DNA of 32,000 nucleotides from a cyanobacterium endosymbiont of Epithemia turgida isolate EtSB Lake Yunoko (GCF_000829235.1 NZ_AP012549.1:2190001-2222000), one strand, 5' to 3'; shown: positions 6,937-22,572, numbered from the stretch's first letter. Notes: a model not told the origin generated them from the sequence alone. A program made the numbers and translations.

Positions 6937-7086
6937 TTATACTCTATCTGATGTTTCCTGATAGAGTGCAGAATCGAATGGTGGAACTTCAATATTGGGA
7001 CATTCATCTTTAGTTGTACTAAAAATGTAATCAAAGCCTTCAGCGATATATTGAACTAAACTTTGCAAGATTTTATCGACACTCAT
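6937..7086 (-). CDS. Small hypothetical protein (49 aa), below the ORF-track cutoff
   Basis: The minus-strand ORF reads MSVDKILQSLVQYIAEGFDYIFSTTKDECPNIEVPPFDSALYQETSDRV*. An AAGAGG Shine-Dalgarno-like motif lies 8 nt upstream of the ATG. The ORF forms a local GC-richer island inside an otherwise ORF-free desert. I cannot assign a family from memory. Confidence 0.4.
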   Translation of the reverse strand: MSVDKILQSLVQYIAEGFDYIFSTTKDECPNIEVPPFDSALYQETSDRV

Positions 7087-7919: not shown

Positions 7920-9245
7920 GACTTTATTCTAAATGATTACAGTTTGCTCATAGGTTTGTAGAATCTAACTATGATTGCTTGTTACACCGGAGAGAAACTT
8001 GCTCATCATCAAGCGAGTTTTGAACTGTTCATATGTCATCTCCCAGAATCTTTTGGATATTTAATTGCCATGGGAATTACTCAAAATTTAAATCTTTTAG
8101 AAAATCTACACTTTAGTGAAAAATCCTAAAAAATAGGATTAAAACCTGATTTTTAATCCTATTTTTTAGGATTTTTCATTAGTTCTAGCTTCAGGAGGCT
8201 TTACGGGGAAAGTTTGGGCAGTACATGAAGGAACAACGGTATTTTCCCATGAACCTCTATTGCCGACAGAAGTCTCTTTCTTGCAAGCCCAACTTATAGA
8301 AACCTACTTTTTAAACACCCTCAACTATTAAAATTAGATTGCTACTAAAGTCGGTAGAATAGGCGATGTAGCAAGTAAAAACGCTTTTTTATTAGAAAAA
8401 CCTGAGGTGTGTTCAGTTCAGTCCTTAAGGTTCGATATGAGCGGCTAGAGTAGCTTTAGCGGGAGGGTTGGGGGTCACCTTTAAATAGGTTAGCAGCTCT
8501 AAAATTAGGGTGCCAACCTAGTGTAATCATAGCTTATTCTTTAATCATGGCTATCAAAGCTGTATCAGGGAGTGAAGATGAAGCTTTATATACCTTTAGG
8601 CGTTATTTTTCAGGAGCTACTTTGCTACTTAATACCTAAGATGCAGTAGCTGCAGCAGAAAGCTTAGTGGACAAAGTTAATAAAAGAATCCTCAATGTCA
8701 CAGAAGTTCGCATAGATTCGGGAGATTTAGTTACCTTATCCCAAAAAGTGCGATTTCTATTACCCAACATTAAGATCTTTGCCAGTGGCGATCTTGATGA
8801 ATTGGGAATTGCTCGTCTCAAAGAAGCAGGTGCCTCTATTGATAGTTGTAGATTCGGAACCAACCTTGTAACCGGCAAACCTCTCAAGGGAGTCTATAAA
8901 TTAATGGAAATTGATGGAGCTATTACTATGGCAAAATCTAGCAGTAAGGCCACCTATCCAGGGCAAAAACAGATTTTTGGGACCTACATACAATGAGGGT
9001 ATAGTCAAAGGTGATTGCTTAGGGTTAACCACTGTCTCAATTGAGAGAGCGGAAACCAACTTTTACAGTTGGTCATAACAGAAGGAAAATCCTTGTTTCA
9101 ACCTGAATCTTTAGAGACTATTCGTCAACGAACTCAAAGGTCGGTTGAGAGTCTCCTCTCTGCAACTCATCATCTTAGGCAACCCACTTAAATTGAGGTT
9201 AAAATCTCCAATGAACTCGAATCGTTGCGTCAATCTTTAGGTTAA
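7920..9245 (+). pseudogene. pncB: Nicotinate phosphoribosyltransferase pseudogene (multiple stops and frameshifts)
   Basis: Collinear NAPRTase fragments appear in shifting frames:
- NLTMIACYTGEKLAHHQASFELFICHLPESFGYLIAMGITQNLNLLE (from 7962).
- GFTGKVWAVHEGTTVFSHEPLLPTEVSFLQAQLIETYFLNTLNY* (8196-).
- MAIKAVSGSEDEALYTFRRYFSGATLLLNT* (8548-).
- ORF 8667-8996 (..VRIDSGDLVTLSQKVRFLLPNIKIFASGDLDE..FGTNLVTG..VYKLMEI..TYPGQKQIF).
- The C-terminal ..ITEGKSLFQPESLETIRQRTQRSVESL..RQPT*IEVKISNELESLRQSLG*, ending at 9245. Confidence 0.88.
8116..8177. repeat. Perfect palindrome inside the pncB pseudogene (28-bp arms, 6-nt loop)
   Basis: 8116-8143 (tgaaaaatcctaaaaaataggattaaaa) is the exact reverse complement of 8150-8177 (ttttaatcctattttttaggatttttca). 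The loop is cctgat. Confidence 0.97.
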
Positions 9246-9281
9246 TGGATAGTGAATAGTTGAGTGTTAATTATTAATCAT

Positions 9282-9848
9282 ATGACAAAAATTGCTCTGT
9301 TTGGAACTAGTGCTGATCCTCCTACCGCCGGACATCAATCAATTCTCCGTTGGTTATCTACTCACTATGATTGGGTTGGGGTTTGGACTTCGGATAATCC
9401 TTTTAAAACTCATAAAACTTCTTGGTACCATCGTATGGCAATGTTAACATTATTAATTGATGATATTAATCTCCCAAGAAACAATATTTATCTTAGTGAG
9501 AAACTAAGTCATCGATGTAGTTTGATAAGTTTAGCTAAAGCTAAAGAAATTTGGGGAAACAATCCTGATTATAGTTTGGTAATCGGGTCTGATTTAGTTG
9601 GTCAAATTCGTCGTTGGTATCATATTGAAGATATACTAGAGCAAGTCAATCTTTTGATTGTTCCTCGCTCTGGATACGACCTGACTCAAAAGGATATAAT
9701 AGCTTTGAAGAAATTAGGAGGAAACTATCAGATTGCTGATCTTGCTGTCCCTGCTGTTTCTTCGACTGCTTATAGAGAAAACCAGAATCCAAGTGTATTG
9801 ATTAAACCTATTCAAGAATATATTTATCGAGAGCAATTATACCGATAA
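9282..9848 (+). CDS. nadD: Nicotinate-nucleotide adenylyltransferase
   Basis: The ORF is open from the GTG at 9264. The ATG at 9282 gives MTKIALFGTSADPPTAGHQSIL.., the nucleotidyltransferase (H/T)xGH motif at the usual N-terminal position. SSTAYRE lies near the C-terminus. The gene sits in a pncB-nadD-nrtR-nadE cluster. Confidence 0.88.
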   Translation: MTKIALFGTSADPPTAGHQSILRWLSTHYDWVGVWTSDNPFKTHKTSWYHRMAMLTLLIDDINLPRNNIYLSEKLSHRCSLISLAKAKEIWGNNPDYSLVIGSDLVGQIRRWYHIEDILEQVNLLIVPRSGYDLTQKDIIALKKLGGNYQIADLAVPAVSSTAYRENQNPSVLIKPIQEYIYREQLYR

Positions 9849-9869
9849 ATTTAGAAAAAAATAAATTTG

Positions 9870-10546
9870 TTTTAGCCGGGTTTAAACCTAGTGTAAATAA
9901 TATAATTTTTTTCCTTAATTTTTACCAGAATCAACTCTTCTCTTTATTTGTTAAATGGAAACTCACTCTGTAATAAGCAATAGAATTTATATAAAATTTT
10001 ATAAATTTTTTAAAAAAGTATTATGTAAAAAAATTAGAGTCAATAATCTATATTTAGAGCAATTATGTACTTTTAAGAGTCAAAATTTAGATCCAAAGGT
10101 ATCTCTTAATAGTTTTAATGTCCACTATATTTCTGTTAGCTATTTTGTTTTAGTTCGTTTTGAATAGGCATAACTCTTAAATCTTAATAATTATGGATAG
10201 AATTACTTGGTGCATCATTCAAAAGATTACTCAATTAGTTTTTGATTATGATCAAATTTTAGATTATCGTTATCAACGATTGTGCAATAAAATTAAATAT
10301 AGTCCTATTGCTTTTGAGGTTCTGCTGTACTTATTTACTTTAAATGATATTTATCAAGTTTATTCAGCTATTTTATAAAAAAACTTTACTGATTATTCTA
10401 ATTTTAAATTTCGATTATTAAAATTAGATTTTCTGATAAATACTAAGAGAAAAGTCTCTATAGTTACAGGAAGACCCGCTAGTTTATATCGTTTTGACTT
10501 TGAAGTATTTAATCCCTTTAAAGACAACCATTTTATATTTGTTTAA
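9870..10546 (+). pseudogene. nrtR: Nudix-related NAD regulator (NrtR-type) pseudogene
   Basis: Nudix-domain remnants read ..SVNNIIFFLNFYQNQLFSLFVKW.. and ..NNLYLEQLCTFKSQNLDPK..ISVSYFVLV (compare YLEQLYTFG..RDPRG..ISVAY.ALV). The C-terminal winged-helix part reads FDYDQILDYRYQRLCNKIKYSPIAFEVLLYLFTLNDIYQVYSAIL*KNFTDYSNFKFRLLKLDFLINTKRKVSIVTGRPASLYRFDFEVF. It has an in-frame TAA at 10376-10378, and the same frame continues to 10546. The track ORFs 9955-10167 and 10193-10378 are pieces of this gene. Confidence 0.72.
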
Positions 10547-10563
10547 ATCTAATAAGATTACTT

Positions 10564-12252
10564 ATGAAAATTGCTATTGCTCAACTGAATCCAACCATTG
10601 GAGATTTAGCAAATAACGCTAAAAAAATTGTAGAAGCAGCTCAATTTGCTGCTCATCAAAATGCTAGGCTTTTACTAACTCCTGAATTATCTTTATGTGG
10701 ATATCCTCCCCGCGACTTACTACTTGATCCTAGTTTTATTAAATCCCTTTCTATTGAATTGCAAAGTTTAGCTCAGAAATCTCCCTCTCAATTAGCTATT
10801 TTAGTAGGAACAGTTACTCCTAATCATGATGCTCATATTAAAGGAGAAAAGCCTCTTTTTAATAGTATTGCGTGGTTAGAAAATAGTCAGATAAAAAAGG
10901 TATTTCATAAAAGACTTTTACCAACGTATGATGTCTTTGATGAAGATCGCTATTTTGAACCAGGGCGACAAAATAATTATTTCGAATTATTACCTGATTC
11001 CCAATCATCTACTCCTTTAAAAATTGGGATTACAATCTGTGAAGATTTATGGAATGATGAAAAGTTTTGGGGGGGTAAATATTATGAGTATAATCCCCTA
11101 GAAGATTTGCTTAAATTTGGGGTTGATTTTATTTTAAATTTATCTGCTTCTCCCTATAATGTCGGCAAGCAGAAGATACGAGAAAAAATGGTAAAATATA
11201 GCAGTAAACACTATCAAACTCCTATTATTTATGTCAATCAAATTGGTGGTAATGATGATTTAATTTTTGATGGAAATAGTTTTGCTGTAAACAAAAAAAG
11301 TGAAATTGTATTACGATTAAAGGCATTTGAGGAAAATATTGATTTTATCAATTTACAAATAAAAGATAAAGATCTTTCTTTGTCAAAAATAAATGATGAA
11401 ATAAAAATAGAGGAAGAAGAAATTTGGCTAGCCCTAGTTTTAGGGGTTAAAGACTATGTGAAAAAATGTGGGTTTTCTAAGGTCGTTTTAGGATTAAGTG
11501 GAGGAATTGACTCTGCGTTAGTTGCTGCGATTGCTACAGAAGCGTTAGGAAAAGAAAATGTATTAGCATTACTTATGCCATCTCCTTATAGTTCTCACCA
11601 TTCTATTATTGATGCTGAAGCTTTAGTTAAAAATTTAGGTATTAACAGTTATAAGTTACCTATTGGGGATATTATGGAGTCTTATAAGATTCTATTAGAC
11701 CCCTTATTTGAAGGAACAAAACTTGGAATTGCTGAGGAAAATATTCAATCTCGCATTCGGGGTAATTTATTGATGGCTATTGCTAATAAATTTGGACATC
11801 TTCTGCTATCTACTGGGAATAAATCAGAAATGGCGGTAGGTTATTGCACTTTGTATGGTGATATGAATGGAGGGTTAGCTGTTATTTCAGATGTGCCTAA
11901 AACTCGTGTATTTTCCCTTTGCCGTTGGCTAAATTGTGACAGAGAAATAATACCCCATAATATTTTAATTAAATCCCCTAGTGCGGAATTAAAACCAAAT
12001 CAAACCGATCAAGACTCTTTACCCTCTTATGAAGTACTTGATGAGATTTTAGAGGGATTAATTCATCGTCATCAATCAGTTAGTCAAATTCATGAAGCAG
12101 GATTTGATTTAGCCACTATCGATAAAGTAATAAAATTAGTTGCCAGTGCTGAATTTAAACGAAAACAGGCTTCTCCAGGATTAAGAATAACTGATAGAGC
12201 ATTTGGAACAGGTTGGAAAATGCCTATTGCAAATCGTTGGAAAATTAATTAA
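10564..12252 (+). CDS. nadE: Glutamine-dependent NAD+ synthetase
   Basis: Complete 562-aa ORF. It has an N-terminal CN-hydrolase/nitrilase domain (MKIAIAQLNP.., TPELSLCGYPPRDL, ICEDLW) and a C-terminal NAD synthetase domain with the PP-loop GLSGGIDS, followed by STGNKSE and EFKRKQA. Confidence 0.95.
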   Translation: MKIAIAQLNPTIGDLANNAKKIVEAAQFAAHQNARLLLTPELSLCGYPPRDLLLDPSFIKSLSIELQSLAQKSPSQLAILVGTVTPNHDAHIKGEKPLFNSIAWLENSQIKKVFHKRLLPTYDVFDEDRYFEPGRQNNYFELLPDSQSSTPLKIGITICEDLWNDEKFWGGKYYEYNPLEDLLKFGVDFILNLSASPYNVGKQKIREKMVKYSSKHYQTPIIYVNQIGGNDDLIFDGNSFAVNKKSEIVLRLKAFEENIDFINLQIKDKDLSLSKINDEIKIEEEEIWLALVLGVKDYVKKCGFSKVVLGLSGGIDSALVAAIATEALGKENVLALLMPSPYSSHHSIIDAEALVKNLGINSYKLPIGDIMESYKILLDPLFEGTKLGIAEENIQSRIRGNLLMAIANKFGHLLLSTGNKSEMAVGYCTLYGDMNGGLAVISDVPKTRVFSLCRWLNCDREIIPHNILIKSPSAELKPNQTDQDSLPSYEVLDEILEGLIHRHQSVSQIHEAGFDLATIDKVIKLVASAEFKRKQASPGLRITDRAFGTGWKMPIANRWKIN

Positions 12253-12289
12253 TACTAGCTAAAAGGACAATACTTTTATAGTATTTAAA

Positions 12290-14711
12290 ATAAATTGAGG
12301 TAAAATTGAATCATGATCCATGGTTATTGAGATATCTGAAAAGAATTAGACCATGTAGATCCGCGTTCTTCCTAGTTATGAATTTAAGGAATAGTTGGTA
12401 AATTATCCCCGTAGATAGAAGAATGTACGGTCACATTTGCGATTGTTATGCTATCGTCGAATAATTAGGTGACTAATTTCATATAAGGAATTTCCCCGCA
12501 TCCTGCACAAGCATCCGAAAACTCAAACAAGAGTTCTTACATCTGTTGATGACTAATTTTATTTAGTTGTAAAGTATGTGATTTAAGATTAACAAGAGCG
12601 AAAAAATAGTCCAAATTTTTTCGCTTTTACTCCTGTATTGGTAATTGAGAAGTCATATTTATTGCTTCCAACTTTGCTTGAAATTTATTTTTTGTAGTAC
12701 AAACATTTACATAAAACCCACACCTACTACAGTCTTCCGCAACGACTTGGCTCGTGAATTTCAATTAAGTTTTTTAAAGTCTAAACACTTTGCATAAGTA
12801 GTTTTGAAGACTTGGAGTACATTGGTAAATGTTTGTTTCTTATACACTTTATACTGAATGACCGCATAAGGATACACTAAAACACATTTATTACCTTAAA
12901 CACAGACATTGAGGTCTCGTACAGATATTTAATGGATAACCTTCTGGTTTTTCTATTTTATTTTACCATATTTTTTAAATACATCACGGGTAAATACTAA
13001 TGTGGCATTGAAAATCAGACATTCAAAGTTAGTTGCGTCGTCATCTATCGTTATCGAAACCGCTACTTGATGAAAATAATCTAATGCCGAGTCAACCACT
13101 TTCATATTCATTTGTACGATTTATTTACTTTTTTTACTATAAGTCTTGTAGATGTGTTTTAAAATTGGCTCTCTAGCTTTTTCTCTAGTTAATCCTTTTA
13201 GTTATTTATTGATAATTTATTTTTGGATAGACTAAAAAAATAATATTATATTAGATTTAATCTATAGTGATTATTTAGTATAAATATTAAGCTTTCAACT
13301 ACTCATTCTAAAATATAAATTTATTTATAAGAAAAATCATTAGTTATAAATAATAAAGTTAGCGTTGTTACCTGGTTTAATTAAACTAGAAAAGAAATTT
13401 TTGGAGTAAAAATATCAGGGGTTTGTTCGATGATTTTACCCAGGTTTTCGTTTATATTAACAATCATATCTAAGTATCAACTATAGCAGATAGCTATATT
13501 ATAATCAGTTCTTATAAAAAAGGTTAGACTAGCATGAATAAAACTATCTTTAGTTATAGGATTAAAGTGGTTTTTGCAATCACTTAATACCATATTATTA
13601 CAAATTTTTTTAACCATTAAAGAGATGATTTTTGTGAAATAAATTATATGCCGTTCTCCAATAACTATTTTAATACTTTAAATTAATATCTAAATCTAAA
13701 TAGAGTTTTTAACGCTTTAAAGATAACATATAAATATAAAAGTTATCCAAATAATTTATTTTAAAATTGAGTTTATTCTTGCTATTTTTAATAAAAATTT
13801 AACGAGCTTTATTGTTAAAAATAGACAATACTATTTAATTCTAACAATCCCAATTTTTCCATTAGTTTAATAAAAAATTCAATGCTTTATAAGTGTTTTT
13901 ACAAAACTCATCAAAATAATAACTTTTTCTGCTTTAGAATTACCATAATAGTCAAACAAATGATATTGTTAGCCCGTCAGTTAAGCAAACTTATACATTA
14001 CTTTTTCTAAGATTTTGTGATAAACTTTAGAAAACTCTGGGGGTTCCCTCGTTTGTAAGTAAACATCAGAGTTTTGTAGTAGTTCTTCAACTCATCGGGT
14101 AATCAGGAGTTAACACTCATTCACGATGGGCAATCATCCATTGATCTTTAATCAATGATCGCAAGACACTATCCTCTAATAACTCCACTTTTTGCACTTA
14201 ATAGGCAGTTCGAAACCCATCAAAAAATATATAAAACCCCACAAAAACTGGTGGCTGTAGCTATTACAGCTAAATCTTGCACTTCTTGCACAGATGCAGA
14301 ACTTAACAATACCAACCTAGTCCTACGGACAGCCATCACATTACTATGATCTGATCACCAAAAATAGATAACGTCTGGGCAACTAGAGAGTCTGCTGCGA
14401 CACGGAGTACCAATTGACATGATTTTTCTTATTAAATTGTAGCTATCAGAAATTATCAATAATAAATTCTAAAATAATGTCAATGGAGTGTTAATACTCT
14501 TGTTTACAATGCTTTATTAATAATCTCTGCTATTCCTCTCTCACTTTATATTTAGACGACGGAAGGTACAGTTATCCGGAGGTTTGATCCGCCCATTCTT
14601 CTCTAGGTGAGGAAAAGTAATAGGATAGATAGCAATCACTTCATTGACGTGACGAGTCACTCTAACGACCGCTTTGTTTCCACTCAAAGTGACATAGACT
14701 TAAGTGTTCAT
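12290..14711 (-). pseudogene. nifJ: Pyruvate:ferredoxin/flavodoxin oxidoreductase pseudogene (heavily decayed, 3' part deleted)
   Basis: Collinear PFOR signatures appear on the minus strand through many stops and frameshifts:
- N-terminus, about 14711-14550: MNT*VYVTLSGNKAVVRVTRHVNEVIAIYPITFPHLEKNG.
- About 14385-14205: LSIFGDQIIVM..FFDGFRTAY*VQKVELL.
- About 12935-12850: ISVRDLNVCV*GNKCVLVYPYAVIQYKVY, a decayed CxxCxxCxxxCP ferredoxin motif.
- About 12540-12390: ELLFEFSDACAGCGEIPYMKLVT*LFDDSITIANVTVHSSIYGDNLPTIP.
- About 12375-12335: EERGSTWSNSFQ. Confidence 0.88.
12597..12625. repeat. Perfect inverted repeat (11-bp arms, 7-nt loop) inside the nifJ pseudogene
   Basis: agcgaaaaaat-agtccaa-attttttcgct. 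Confidence 0.9.
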
Positions 14712-15410: not shown

Positions 15411-18053
15411 TTAAACAATATCTTCTTCTGATTGTTTTTTACAAAATTCTAAGTTATTATTATGACAATCAACAATAACTTGATCACCACAAACAAATCT
15501 ATTTTCTAATATTCTTGTCGCCATAGGATTCTCTAATTCTCGTTGAATAGCCCGTTTTAAAGGACGCGCTCCATAGACTGGATCATAACTAGAACTAACA
15601 ATATAGTCTAGGGCTGAGTCTGTTAATTCTATCCTAATTTTTTGTTCTTTAAGTAATTTTTCAATTCGTTTTATTTGCAGACACACAATCTGCCGTAACT
15701 CTGTTTTATTAAGAGTATGAAAAATAATCAGATCATCGATACGGTTCAAAAATTCGGGACGGAAATGTTTATGCAATGATTCCAAAACCTTTTTGCGCAT
15801 TTCCTCATAATCTGTTTCACCTTGTGTAAGGTTAAGGATATGGCTACTTCCTATGTTACTAGTCATTACAATAATAGCGTTACGGAAATCTATCACTCGT
15901 CCTTGGGAATCAGTAATACGTCCATCATCAAAGACTTGCAAAAGAATATTAAAGACATCTACATGGGCTTTTTCCACTTCATCCAACAACACTACACAAT
16001 AGGGACGGCGACGGACTGCTTCAGACAATTGTCCCCCTTTCTCATACCCCACATATCCAGGGGGCGCACCAACTAATCGAGAGACTGCCTGTTTTTCCAT
16101 ATACTCAGACATATCAATGCGAACCATTGCTTCTTCTGAGTCGAAGAGAAAAGCGGCTAATGCCCTAGCTAATTCAGTTTTTCCTACCCCTGTAGGACCC
16201 ATAAACAAGAATGAACCAATAGGACGAGAAGGATCTTTCATTCCAGCTCTAGCACGACGAATAGCAGCAGCAACAGCAGCTATAGCCTCTTGTTGTCCAA
16301 TAACCTTTTCGTGTAGATGTACTTCAAGTTTAAGAAGTTTTTGACGTTCGGTCGCTAACAAATTATTGGTAGGAATACCTGTCCATCCAGCTACAATTTC
16401 AGCAATATCAGACTCGGAGACTTGTTCTCGGAGTAAGGTTTTGCCCTGCGCTTGAATATCAAGAAGTCGGGTTTCTTTAGCTTCCCGTTGCTGTTGAACC
16501 ACTTCTAGTTTACCGTATTTTAATTGAGCGGCTTTGTTCAGTTCGTAAGCCCTTTCTGCTTGTTCGACTTGTAGACGTAGCTGTTCTTCTTCTTCTTTAA
16601 GAGTATTAATATCATTAAGTATCTGCTTTTCTAACTGCCATTGGGACGCAAGTTGTTCGTGAGTAGATTCTAAATTTTTTATTTCTTTTTGAATGCCTTC
16701 TAAACGTTCTTTGGAAGCGCAATCAATGATTAACATTCCTCGTTGTTCTTCTCCCTCTAAGGAAAGTTTTTCCATTTGTAACTGCATTAAACGACGATCA
16801 ACATCTTCTAGTTCAACAGGTTTAGAGGTGATTTCCATTTTTAACTTAGCTGCTGCTTCATCTACAAGGTCAATGGCTTTGTCGGGTAAAAAGCGATCAG
16901 TAATGTAACGATGGGAAAGAGTTGCTGCAGCTACTAATGCTGAGTCAGTAATTTTGACCCCATGATGGACTTCATAGCGTTCTTTGAGTCCTCGTAGAAT
17001 GGAAATGGTATCTTCCACACTCGGTTGTTTAACATACACTTGCTGAAAACGCCGTTCTAGAGCAGGATCTTGTTCAATATGCTTCCGGTACTCATCAAGA
17101 GTTGTTGCACCGATACAGCGCAATTCTCCGCGGGCTAACATGGGTTTTAAGAGGTTACCTGCATCCATGCCTCCTCCTTCGCGAGAACCGGCTCCAACAA
17201 CGGTATGAAGTTCATCGATAAAGAGTATGATTTCTCCCCCGGATTGGGTGACTTCTCGCATTACGGTTCGTAGACGTTCTTCAAATTCCCCTCGATATTT
17301 CGCCCCCGCGATAAGACTTCCCATATCTAGAGAGATTAATTGACGACTTTTGAGAGACTCAGGAACGTCCCCGTTAATAATACGTTGGGCTAACCCTTCG
17401 GCAATTGCAGTTTTTCCGACTCCTGGTTCTCCAATTAAGACGGGGTTATTTTTTGATCTACGGGAAAGAACCTGAATCACACGACGAATTTCTTCATCTC
17501 GGCCAATTACAGGGTCAAGTTTTCCTTTTGCCGCTTGTTCAGTAAGATCTCGCCCATATTTTACGAGAGCTTCATAATTATCTTCTTGGTTAGGTTCGGT
17601 AACTTTTTGTGACCCTCGAAGTGCCCTTATCTCTTTCTCTAAGTCTTGGGGGTCAAATTGAAAACTCTTCAAGCAACGTCGTCCAATGCGTTCATCTTCA
17701 GCAAATCCCATCAACAGATGTTCAACGGAAATATATTTATCTTGCCAACTTTCACGAGAAGCTTCCGCACGATCTAACATTAAATCTAAGCCCTGTCCTA
17801 AGTAAAGTTGATCGACAGTAATTACTTTAGATTGACGGTTGCCAAAAACTTCTAACTGTTGTTGTAATCGGAAAACATCTAAGTTAGATCTTTCTAAAAT
17901 ACGAATAGCTAAGCCTTTTTCCTGTTCTAACAAGGCTAAAACAACGTGTTCCACTTCTAAGGTTTGATTTCTAAAACGCCGGGCTACGTCTTGTGATCTG
18001 ACAATCGCGTCCCAGGCTTGTTCTGTAAACTTACTTGAATCAGTTGGCTGCAT
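15411..18053 (-). CDS. clpB: ATP-dependent chaperone/disaggregase ClpB
   Basis: The ORF is open to 18104. The ATG at 18053 gives [18 protein letters not shown].., the usual cyanobacterial ClpB N-terminus. There are two AAA+ modules with Walker A motifs GEPGVGKT and GPTGVGKT. A long coiled-coil middle domain and the ClpB signatures [11 protein letters not shown] and [10 protein letters not shown] are present. Confidence 0.95.
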
Positions 18054-18797
18054 TATTGGTTTAATTCCCTGCGGGTAAGGCAAAAGTTGATGACAATACG
18101 ACATTCAACTTAATCCTAATATTCTTATTTTAATCGGTAGTATGACGAGCGGTAGAAAGAAAGACAGTTCTAATTTCTGATCCTGTCAAGTTTCATTAAG
18201 GACATAGTCAAATTGGATTTCTATTAAACTTAACTAATAGGATATCAATTTTCATTGAACAAATTTTCAACTACTTGTAGGACAATCGATCCAGAAGATT
18301 ATAAAGTATTTTCACTTAATAACTTTCCTATCAGAAATTCATTTTCTTGCTTTAATGGCAAGCCATCTCACTTCTGAAGAGACTATTTTAATAGCATCAG
18401 GCAAACAATAAGGCAACCATCTCGATTTTTATAAAGTTTGTTATATTTTCAAACTATTTTTATGCAAAAAATACAAAATTTTTATTTTGGGCATTTATTG
18501 CACGTATAAAATTTGATTAAACGAGCAATTAAAATCAAAAAATTGCTCTGCAAAAATTGCTTTCTATACATCAACCGCTATAATTTTATTTATCTTATTG
18601 ATTGTCTTAGTTTATGTCATATCGATATATTTTTTAAACTTTATTATTAGTTTAACATAGCCCAAATATCTAGTTGGCAGCAAGATCTTAGCTCTGTTAA
18701 TACACCTAAACTGAAGCTTACTACCAACCCAGATTTTTATGCATATGATGCATATTTTGGCTGTGTCAGTTGACTTATTTCTGAATTTCTATTTCTT

Positions 18798-19604: not shown

Positions 19605-20496
19605 AAGAGATCTCCTCGAACACCTTTTCAATGGTTAATTTTATCTATTGACCTAACTTTACTCTTTTTTTCTCCTTGCTTATACCAATTTATCTTTAGT
19701 TATTGCAAGGCTTCTAAGAATTTGGGGTGAGTCAATTAAATTTAATAAATCAAGTTCAATTATAGACATTAGTTACCCTGACATATACTGTCATCATAGT
19801 GAAAAAAGTTTTTCAAAGTCAGGTTTTGACAGCTAACTATACTGAGATATCTCAAACATTAGTATAGATTAAATAATCTTGTGAAGTTACACAGAATGGC
19901 AAACTTACATTACTCAAGAATATATAAATTTAGATTATTTCTACAAAGTAGAATTTTATTAACGAGTTTCACTAATTTTCACTTCATCTCTTGTTGACCA
20001 AAATTAATTGATTAAAGTTTATAATTAATAAAAAATCTTTAAAAATTTATTTAGTAATATATCTTCAGTCTCTAAATAATTTATTTATTAAACCTTGCGT
20101 TAAATCAAAAATAGATTTATGTCTATTTGTGTTACCTTAAATTTAATTCAAAGCAGCTCACCACATTCGTTTATGATCTAATGTAGTAGATTAAATTTTA
20201 AATACTATTTCACATAATTGAATGCTAATTATTGAAGCAATTTAATTAAATTTTTGAAAGCTAAATGTATATAATGACGAGATTAATGACATATTTCTAT
20301 CAAAGTAAGTTTTATTAAACTTATTACTATTATTTACAAGTTAGTGATGAATAGAATATTAGCATTCTCATATCAGGCATAAACTTTATAAAATAAAAAA
20401 AAATAACTATATCAATAAATATTTTTTAAAAAAAAATTAACCATGATATTTAAAATTTCAATATTTTGATTAATTACAAGCAATTGTAGTAATTTT

Positions 20497-20553
20497 AATT
20501 TATATTATTTTTACATAAAAATGGTATTTTTTTATGTAAAAATAATATAAATT
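20497..20553. repeat. Perfect palindrome in a gene desert (25-bp arms, 7-nt loop)
   Basis: 20497-20521 (aatttatattatttttacataaaaa) is the exact reverse complement of 20529-20553 (tttttatgtaaaaataatataaatt). The loop is tggtatt. Confidence 0.95.
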
Positions 20554-22119
20554 TAAAAAAATCACAGTAGTATTTTTATGTTTAATAGGAATTATATAGA
20601 TTATCAAAGATTTTATTAAGATCAATATCTAGTTTTATGTCTATACCACCAAACCTTAATAAGGGTGATTTATGATATAAAGCTACTGCTTTCTTTTCTC
20701 TCTATTTCTGTATAGTTAATATTTAAAAATATATTTTTGAACTAAAATTTAAATAAATTAGCTAAAACAATTAACACTTTATAGATTTTTGTTGAAGCTG
20801 TATTTCACTAAAAAATATATCAAAAATAATTTAAATTAAATTTATTAAAAATAGTATAAATACTCCTATAATTAAGTTTATTTTTTTAAAAAAATTACTT
20901 CAAATAATGCTCATTTATTTGACTAAAGTGAACCGGATAACGACTATACTCAAAAGAAAATCTAAAACAATGACTGTAGCTAATTTAGGCAAAGTATCTA
21001 TAATACCCCGTTGGGTATAGGTAATATTCTCATTAATAGCTACTACCATAATTAAGTCTAAATCACACATAATTAAGCTAAATTAACTGGTAATTATTTT
21101 ATTAATTACTGACAATTATTTTTGGATAAAAACTATTGACATTATTGATCAATAAGGCAATAAGGTAAGCATTATTTTTTCCTAGAAATCGCATTATATT
21201 GATACTATTGAACAATATAAATACAAATTATTACTAATGCTAATTAATTTAATTTATTTATGTTTATTTTAATTTAAAATTAATTTTTTAATAAAAAATA
21301 TTTAAAAAATATACTATTCACTAGTATTTTATCGCTGAATGTTTTTAAAAATTTTAATAACAAGTTATTTAAGATTTATTAAACTTAATAAGTTATGATT
21401 AGCCTCTTTATAAGAATTGCTATTTTTAATATTTAGTATATTTATTGAAAATTTAAGTTACCTATACAGTCTATTGTCCGCAATCAGCCTATTTTTTGTA
21501 GTACACATATAATTTTAGCACTATTTTAAGTATTTTTATGTTGTATATTATTACTTTTACTTTTACGTAAAATTTAATTTATATCAAAAAATTTGTATAT
21601 TTATATAACAAAATAAAAAAAATATTGCATTAAAATTGGTAGCTCTTTTTGAAGATTTTTCTCAATAAGAGTAGTTATTAGTTTAACTATTATAATTATT
21701 TACTACTTTACTCCTACACGGTTAAAGAGATTTACTTATATATTTTTATAAAACGGTAAGTTTTTATTGACTTATAATTATTGTTGTATTTAGGTAAAAT
21801 TGTCATAAAAACATAATTTATTACTCTGAGTTAAAACAATTTTTATAATTGCATTATTAATTATAAAACTTTATTATTTAGCATATATAATAGTATATTT
21901 AATTATATTTGCAAGTATTAATTGTTATTTAATATTTAGATTTTATTTAGGTTTAGTAGTCTTACTAAGATGATATGGTTAAGTACTTAATATAGAACAT
22001 AAAATGACTATAAATAAATTTTATTAGATTATTTAGCTACTCTTGTTTTAGTAAATTTTACTCTCTTCTTTTTGTTGTATAGGGTTATATAAAAACAAAT
22101 TTAATTAGGAGTATAACTC

Positions 22120-22406
22120 ATGGATAAACCGACTACTGTTATTTATTCAATTACAGAAGTTCTTAAGTGTATTGACAATAAGTTAGATGGAAATTAAAAG
22201 TAAGTTAATCACAAGTTTAAATTTGATCTAAAAAATGTTATGGATTTAAAGTTGGAAGTAATAACCTAGACTAAGAAATTTAAGAGAATAGATAAGTGAC
22301 TATAAAAAGTACAAAAAACTTAATAAATTAAGTTTGGGCGTTAATTATTTTTTTGTTCTGTGCCATTCTTACTGCTACTAGATTATTTTTCAAGGACAAT
22401 TGTTAA
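22120..22406 (+). pseudogene. Possible decayed small coiled-coil/C-terminal TM protein gene
   Basis: An AGGAG motif lies 9 nt upstream of the ATG at 22120. The reading MDKPTTVIYSITEVLKCIDNKLDGN* is followed by stop-riddled K/L/E-rich reading. In another frame there is a clean hydrophobic tail, VWALIIFLFCAILTATRLFFKDNC*, ending at 22406. This is pattern only, with no family assignment. Confidence 0.3.
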
Positions 22407-22572
22407 CCAACAAAGCGTGATCTGATATTTCAGATTATCTTTAATATAAGATTCAAAGGTGACATTATCAATGATAATAAATAAAATATAGAGAAAAAAA
22501 CTTATTTTAAATAAATTAACTTGTTGACTTGGAGTTTTAAAAAAACAATAGTAACTCTTTCTGATTCTTTCT

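Follow-up and report, generated by a model that had tools for sequence, protein, structure and literature searches.

A decayed nifJ gene between nadE and clpB in the nitrogen-fixing endosymbiont of Epithemia turgida

Identification of a nifJ relic

We analysed a stretch of 32,000 nucleotides (the window) from the genome of the cyanobacterial endosymbiont of Epithemia turgida, and found that the minus-strand span 14711→12342 is almost certainly a non-functional relic of nifJ, the gene for pyruvate:ferredoxin/flavodoxin oxidoreductase (PFOR), in a genome-reduced, N2-fixing endosymbiont of a rhopalodiacean diatom (spheroid body, or diazoplast). The window, with a GC content of 17-46% in 500-nt windows and with intact genes set between long AT-rich, ORF-free stretches, resembles the reduced genome of a cyanobacterial endosymbiont. 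The relic lies between two intact genes, in the following arrangement.

10564..12252, plus strand: intact nadE, encoding an NAD+ synthase of 562 aa; it converges on the nifJ relic and served as our synteny anchor
12253..12341, no strand: spacer with a deletion junction, downstream of nadE (blastn, MAFFT)
12342..14711, minus strand: nifJ pseudogene (tblastn, frameshift-aware dynamic-programming alignment, stitched translation)
15411..18104, minus strand: intact clpB-type chaperone gene (897 aa), the other border of the interval

As a reference we used a NifJ of 1190 aa, composed of the Crocosphaera PFOR that is the best database match (P0001) for aa1-842 and of the C-terminal part of Nostoc NifJ. 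A tblastn search of the whole 32-kb window with this reference gave five collinear minus-strand HSPs (aa1-162, 51-215, 221-449, 576-737 and 737-881), which span 14711→12339 with E-values of 8e-15 to 3e-77. No second PFOR stretch was found by tblastn in the 32-kb window, where the sole other match covered 17 aa with E=2.4, and the nadE-clpB interval contained no Rfam family and no tRNA. We then joined all of the HSPs by a frameshift-aware dynamic-programming alignment written for this analysis, which yielded a single collinear match of reference aa1-880 to 14711→12342, with 776 codons aligned at 49.7% identity. Furthermore, a phmmer search with the stitched translation against 5.8 billion proteins afforded 3884 PFOR-like matches below 1e-5, reaching 8.4e-137, and the top match was the Crocosphaera PFOR, with 47% identity across the stitched translation. 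PFOR similarity by phmmer and tblastn thus extends over most of the length, as expected for membership of the family by descent. These results bear out the initial annotation, which had recognised a 3'-truncated nifJ pseudogene on this strand.

Anatomy of the relic

The aligned relic carries 26 in-frame stops and 16 frameshifts, that is, 42 disabling lesions in 776 aligned codons. A functional PFOR needs an uninterrupted frame of about 1200 codons, whereas the longest ORF within 12342-14711 is 52 aa. In addition, there are six internal deletions (reference aa 46-53, 332-336, 458-468, 477-486, 546-577 and 651-671), and the internal losses amount in all to about 104 reference residues. The parts and motifs that are still recognised are as follows, all on the minus strand.

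14700..14711: retained start codon ATG, followed by Lys4 AAA→TAA (DNA alignment of relics)
13846..14711: N-terminal third, aa1-300, with POR_N and the start of PFOR_II (per-segment statistics)
14645-14616: motif NEVIAIYPIT
14227-14207: motif FFDGFRT
13118..13845: central AT-rich third, aa301-600, with PFOR_II and the POR gamma domain (per-segment statistics, shuffle tests)
12904-12869: first [4Fe-4S] ferredoxin motif, CV*GNKCVLVYP here and CVQCGKCVLVCP in the reference
12731-12696: second [4Fe-4S] motif, CSRCGFYVNVCT here and CTGCAICVDVCP in the reference
12342..12581: start of the TPP-binding domain, aa801-880, with 68% identity and 4 stops (per-segment statistics)
12515-12483: motif DACAGCGEIPY
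12368-12342: motif ERGSTWSNS, the end of the relic

The order POR_N, PFOR_II, POR gamma, EKR, two [4Fe-4S] clusters and TPP_enzyme_C is collinear in the relic, with the EKR region partly deleted (aa651-671) and TPP_enzyme_C reduced to its first ~80 residues; all of the signatures named by the initial annotation (N-terminal, FFDGFRT, 4Fe-4S and TPP) were found where it had placed them. The N-terminal third is the best-kept long block, with 52-63% identity and a GC of 0.30-0.39. Neither ferredoxin-domain [4Fe-4S] cluster retains a complete set of Cys ligands: in the first, two of the four Cys are replaced (C→G and C→Y) and one stop has arisen, and in the second, the third of the four Cys is changed to Tyr, together with a Pro→Thr change, in agreement with the partial replacement of ligands noticed at the outset. 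The distance from the ATG to the first ferredoxin motif is 602 codons versus 692 in the reference, so that the shortening first estimated at about 80 codons is real and amounts to 90.

At the 3' side, the last recognisable codon corresponds to reference aa880 at 12342, and ~310 codons (aa881-1190) are deleted, close to the 300 or so first thought to be missing. The TPP-binding core (GDG...N, about aa980-1020 of the reference) is absent, with nothing past aa881 detected by tblastn in the window. Between the end of the relic and the nadE stop codon, which ends at 12252, lie 89 nt, and the earlier 3' limit of 12290 needs to be moved to about 12342.

In comparison with the homodimeric NifJ/PfoA of Crocosphaera, Rippkaea and Synechocystis, the relic has the same domain order and motifs, although NifJ/PfoA of unicellular cyanobacteria reads GACAGCGETPY where the relic reads DACAGCGEIPY. 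Unlike these enzymes' genes, the relic is no longer a gene, in view of its stops, frameshifts, truncation and replaced Cys ligands.

Homology and composition of the central region

The central third shows an identity of 29-47% and a GC of 0.19-0.25, and is ~170 nt below its expected length. The region 13140-14040 had been described as drifted beyond recognition; this does not hold, since one tblastn HSP covers aa221-449 and reaches down to 13414, aa301-450 scores z=15.7 against 13420-13850 over dinucleotide shuffles, and aa500-585 scores z=4.5 against 13175-13330, a level reached in 0 of 100 shuffles. The whole central block gives z=23 over shuffles. Only one short stretch fails individually.

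13300..13440, minus strand: ~140 nt, about aa440-520, without individually significant NifJ similarity and placed by collinearity alone

Here the local frameshift-aware score of 22 was reached in 56 of 100 shuffles. On these alignments, the central third is still homologous to NifJ and was not replaced.

We also considered whether the patchy preservation records different stages of decay within one gene, as had been proposed. In the window, the central dip spans a GC of 0.16-0.28 and an identity of 27-44%. A low-GC, low-identity centre (aa301-550) is present in all three long relics, namely those of the window and of two sister endosymbionts (L083 and L086, described below), and the centre is the most divergent stretch in all pairwise DNA comparisons, with identities of 0.53-0.64. 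Functional Crocosphaera nifJ itself has a GC of 0.55 at the N-terminus versus 0.37-0.39 for aa301-550, and the GC has fallen by ~0.17-0.19 in the N-terminus and centre alike. Since the central dip recurs in the sister relics and a GC dip already exists in the functional gene, there is no separate stage of decay to be read from it, and the temporal reading was rejected on the per-segment GC and identity, the sister relics and the functional gene; what remains of the proposal is regional unevenness. Conservation among functional NifJs in the centre (0.64-0.92) does not explain the low relic identity, which we infer to reflect AT-rich, indel-prone sequence together with alignment noise. The pattern fits one pseudogene of a single age with an uneven starting composition. 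As a caution, patchy preservation within a pseudogene need not signal different ages.

Relics in sister endosymbionts

We located the loci of sister genomes via NadE, one by a contig scan and the others by protein search and contig look-ups, and found nifJ relics in the nadE-clpB interval of four sister endosymbiont genomes, hence of five including the window. The relic therefore holds the orthologous position among these endosymbionts, and the sister copies range from nearly full length down to ~300 nt, as listed by retained reference residues.

L086 (ENA assembly, 3.10 Mb): aa1-1189, 76% identity, 13 stops, 8 frameshifts
L083 (R. musculus endosymbiont): aa1-1077, 56% identity, 22 stops, 16 frameshifts
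Window (Epithemia turgida endosymbiont): aa1-880, 50% identity, 26 stops, 16 frameshifts
L081 (Rhopalodia gibba endosymbiont): aa1-154 (68% identity, 4 stops, 1 frameshift) and aa984-1097
L001 (Cyanobacterium sp. uoEpiScrs1, 2.48 Mb): aa140-175 and aa1085-1160

The part of nifJ lost from the window, past aa880, is still present in L083, L081 and L086, and in L086 gene callers still report ORF fragments with POR_N, POR, EKR and TPP_enzyme_C domains. The L001 relics were revealed by the full-length reference, after a tblastn search of 80 loci with short hand-picked peptides had given no match. At the other border of the interval, the gene was assigned to the clpB type from the Pfam domains annotated for its L081, L083 and L086 orthologues. 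The spacer next to nadE in the window aligns with nadE-adjacent sequence of the sisters and not with nifJ; indeed, the blastn match to L001 extends from nadE through 12294, and in the MAFFT alignment 12341→12253 falls opposite that end of the L083 interval which adjoins nadE.

By NadE identity, the closest relatives of the window are the endosymbionts of R. gibba (93%) and R. musculus (91%); the values for two further endosymbiont genomes and for the free-living Rippkaea orientalis PCC 8801 are 85% and 79%, respectively. Among the free-living relatives L002, L006, L084 and L085, a set that includes Rippkaea PCC 8801, nifJ was not found beside nadE. We thus rejected an ancestral nadE-nifJ synteny outside the endosymbionts, because other genes adjoin nadE in the free-living relatives, whose NifJ/PfoA genes, unlike the relic, are not adjacent to it.

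Two further observations were made on these loci. The 2.4-kb segment 9690-12047 of L086, which runs from the nadE stop to the nifJ stop in this least-decayed sister, is ORF-poor, and ~0.5 kb of it survives in L001 and none in the window; it may mark another lost gene between nadE and nifJ. Separately, L085 (NEED01000071.1, GCA_002110465.1) has a free-living gene content (NRPS, intact pncB, mutS), while its NadE is 86% identical to that of the window, level with other spheroid-body clades and above Rippkaea PCC 8801 (79%). As a free-living relative of the spheroid bodies, L085 may be closer than the strain usually taken for reference.

Shared and private lesions

We compared the lesions among the relics by DNA alignment. 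The window and L081 have in common the K4 AAA→TAA change and a +1 insertion at aa107, and Q77 CAA→TAA is common to the window, L081 and L083. The window and L083 share four stops (E599 GAA→TAA, E684 GAA→TAA, aa866 and aa870), as well as a deletion of about aa550-578 whose 3' edge is the same in both. As read from these shared lesions, nifJ is shown to have been inactivated before the window lineage and the R. gibba and R. musculus endosymbionts diverged from one another. The recurrence of several lesions in independently assembled sister genomes also makes sequencing error an unlikely source of the stops and frameshifts.

In contrast to the lesions common by descent, the large deletions differ among the window, L081, L083 and L001, as in a pseudogene under relaxed selection with lineage-specific deletions. 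The 2.5-kb internal deletion of L081 is private to it, and since L081 keeps aa984-1097, the 3' truncation of the window postdates the split from the L081 lineage.

The comparison shows that nifJ sat between nadE and clpB in the five endosymbiont genomes, the window included, and that after its inactivation point mutations and small indels wore it down, together with large deletions specific to each lineage, one of which took the last ~310 codons in the window lineage. Mutation was probably AT-biased and selection on nifJ relaxed. PFOR may have become dispensable with the pyruvate dehydrogenase complex kept in a stable host cytoplasm, perhaps with a stable iron supply, where, to judge from the literature, an oxygen-sensitive route serving iron limitation and fermentation would not be needed.

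The timing of the inactivation admits a second reading, which we consider slightly better than even: nifJ was inactivated independently in separate spheroid-body lineages, well after endosymbiosis, so that the five relics form a staggered time series. In L086, each of the 13 stops and 8 frameshifts is private to that lineage, which suggests a parallel inactivation there, and the identity of its relic to the reference is 76% versus 50% for the window. Frameshifts near aa319 and aa444, taken as candidates common to L086, L083 and the window, were rejected as such, for they proved to be different indels at the DNA level. In the VVEMQ motif, the window and L086 do have a stop in place of one and the same Glu codon, but it is parallel, because it is absent from the window's nearest relatives L081 and L083. 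However, a first non-coding change in the common ancestor, such as a promoter mutation, would look alike, as would a lesion-free period of relaxed selection in that ancestor, and a slower substitution rate in the L086 lineage is an alternative. Independent inactivation complements the descent of a dead gene within the window, R. gibba and R. musculus group and does not replace it. That nifJ still worked in one spheroid-body lineage or more (L086 among them) for a long time into the endosymbiosis, with parallel losses to follow, has in our estimate an even chance. If so, the nadE-clpB interval would be a natural time series from ~3.6 kb to ~0.3 kb, which could serve to estimate the rate of deletion and the bias of neutral substitutions in endosymbiont genomes that reportedly lack transposases, and could help to order gene losses during organelle formation.

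The kept domain order, and the better preservation of both ends than of the centre, could also be taken to mean that the span is still useful, as a split or truncated PFOR made from several short ORFs, comparable with the multi-subunit 2-oxoacid:ferredoxin oxidoreductases, or through recoding read-through. We regard this as extremely improbable, in view of the load of disabling lesions, the lack of any ORF above 52 aa, the lost iron-sulfur ligands and the deleted core of the TPP domain, and given that the sisters delete different large parts of the gene without replacement. The better-kept ends match the higher N-terminal GC of functional Crocosphaera nifJ and the pattern of the sister relics, and are not a sign of constraint; nothing in the sequence suggests residual function of the relic. 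Chance similarity, or a foreign or duplicated fragment unrelated to the resident nifJ, would agree with the Pfam scan of the three raw minus-strand frames, which returned POR_N alone at 23.1 bits, under the 27-bit cut-off, but such a scan is too insensitive for a relic so fragmented, and this reading, to which we give next to no credence, is refuted by the phmmer (8e-137) and tblastn (3e-77) E-values, the collinear match over 880 residues, the Crocosphaera PFOR as best match, which the phylogeny predicts, and the interval shared by the five genomes.

Published loss of nifJ and its meaning

The reading of the span as an inactivated nifJ agrees with published accounts. Passages of a 2026 preprint (bioRxiv 10.64898/2026.03.19.712447) report nifJ as lost from spheroid bodies and other N2-fixing cyanobacterial endosymbionts, and treat it as required for N2 fixation only under iron limitation. 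Richelia endobionts without nifJ are described in parts of a 2025 preprint (bioRxiv 10.1101/2025.03.25.645212), where pyruvate dehydrogenase is argued to be sufficient. In the tables concerned of the PMC12903740 supplements, PfoA is present in Rippkaea (Cyan8802-3966) and given as '--' in all seven N2-fixing endosymbionts, including RGRSB, ETSB and UCYN-A, whereas PdhA, PdhC and LpdA are present in the tabulated endosymbionts.

Within these sources, the lost gene, the kind of organism (Epithemia/Rhopalodia spheroid bodies, UCYN-A and Richelia endobionts) and the conclusion are the same as ours; the published accounts, in the passages concerned, give the absence of the gene, and the anatomy of the relic and the locus-by-locus comparison come from the present analysis. 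An intact second nifJ copy outside the 32 kb would be excluded by the published tables, which cover related genomes: since these give PfoA as '--', the objection that an intact paralogue exists is, for the related genomes and as far as the tables go, answered in the negative. The proposal that loss of nifJ points to a reductant supply which is rewired or depends on the host is more than the evidence can carry, PfoA being absent and pyruvate dehydrogenase kept in the seven tabulated endosymbionts.

The pseudogene call is correct, and the loss of nifJ in such endosymbionts is already published; what is mildly new is confined to the series of decay states at one locus across five genomes and to the hint that inactivation was parallel. 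The relic confirms at the sequence level a loss already tabulated for every N2-fixing unicellular cyanobacterial endosymbiont sequenced, and carries little weight alone. It illustrates the usual course of endosymbiont genome reduction, with AT-biased point lesions and small indels, then lineage-specific deletions, and its modest value lies in a well-anchored locus for comparing decay among spheroid-body genomes. Spheroid-body genomes are poor in transposases and have 225 (EtSB) to 286 (RgSB) annotated pseudogenes, found by tblastn search (PMC5638926), and their decay state differs between lineages, according to the relevant passages of that paper and of the 2026 preprint (PMC5638926; bioRxiv 10.64898/2026.03.19.712447). 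Enriched in AT, frameshifted, partly deleted and situated in a long 'intergenic' region, the nifJ relic is typical of this class and not distinguishable from it, with two further relics, of pncB and of a NUDIX/NrtR-type gene, only a few kb away.

Neighbouring genes and relics

The first of these, a relic of pncB (nicotinate phosphoribosyltransferase), occupies 7932-9260 on the plus strand in three frames, with 54-71% identity to the Rippkaea protein, and none of L081, L083 and L086 has a called pncB at this position. The pncB-nadD-NUDIX-nadE cluster thus seems to have lost its first gene across the clade, while nadD and nadE are intact. The NUDIX/NrtR-type gene at 9845-10543 (plus strand), directly upstream of nadE, has at least seven stop codons in the window, whereas it is intact (241 aa) in L081, L083 and L086; its loss looks specific to the window's lineage.

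Elsewhere in the window, ~2.9 kb at 19632-22572, between a glycosyltransferase gene and a 710-aa ORF, has a GC of 0.17-0.24 and no ORF of 90 aa or more, and the equivalent gap in L001 is only ~1.2 kb; this stretch is probably another heavily decayed gene or genes. A group I intron lies at 1737-1933 on the minus strand (Rfam RF00028, 88.6 bits), which is most probably the well-known tRNA-Leu(UAA) intron of cyanobacteria; the host tRNA itself was not called by ARAGORN. Finally, an AT-rich stretch that otherwise lacks ORFs contains an intact ORF of 49 aa at 6937-7086 (minus strand). It shows 61% identity to an ORF of equal length in the same position in L085, and 43% to the one in Rippkaea, and probably represents a genuine small gene that was retained.
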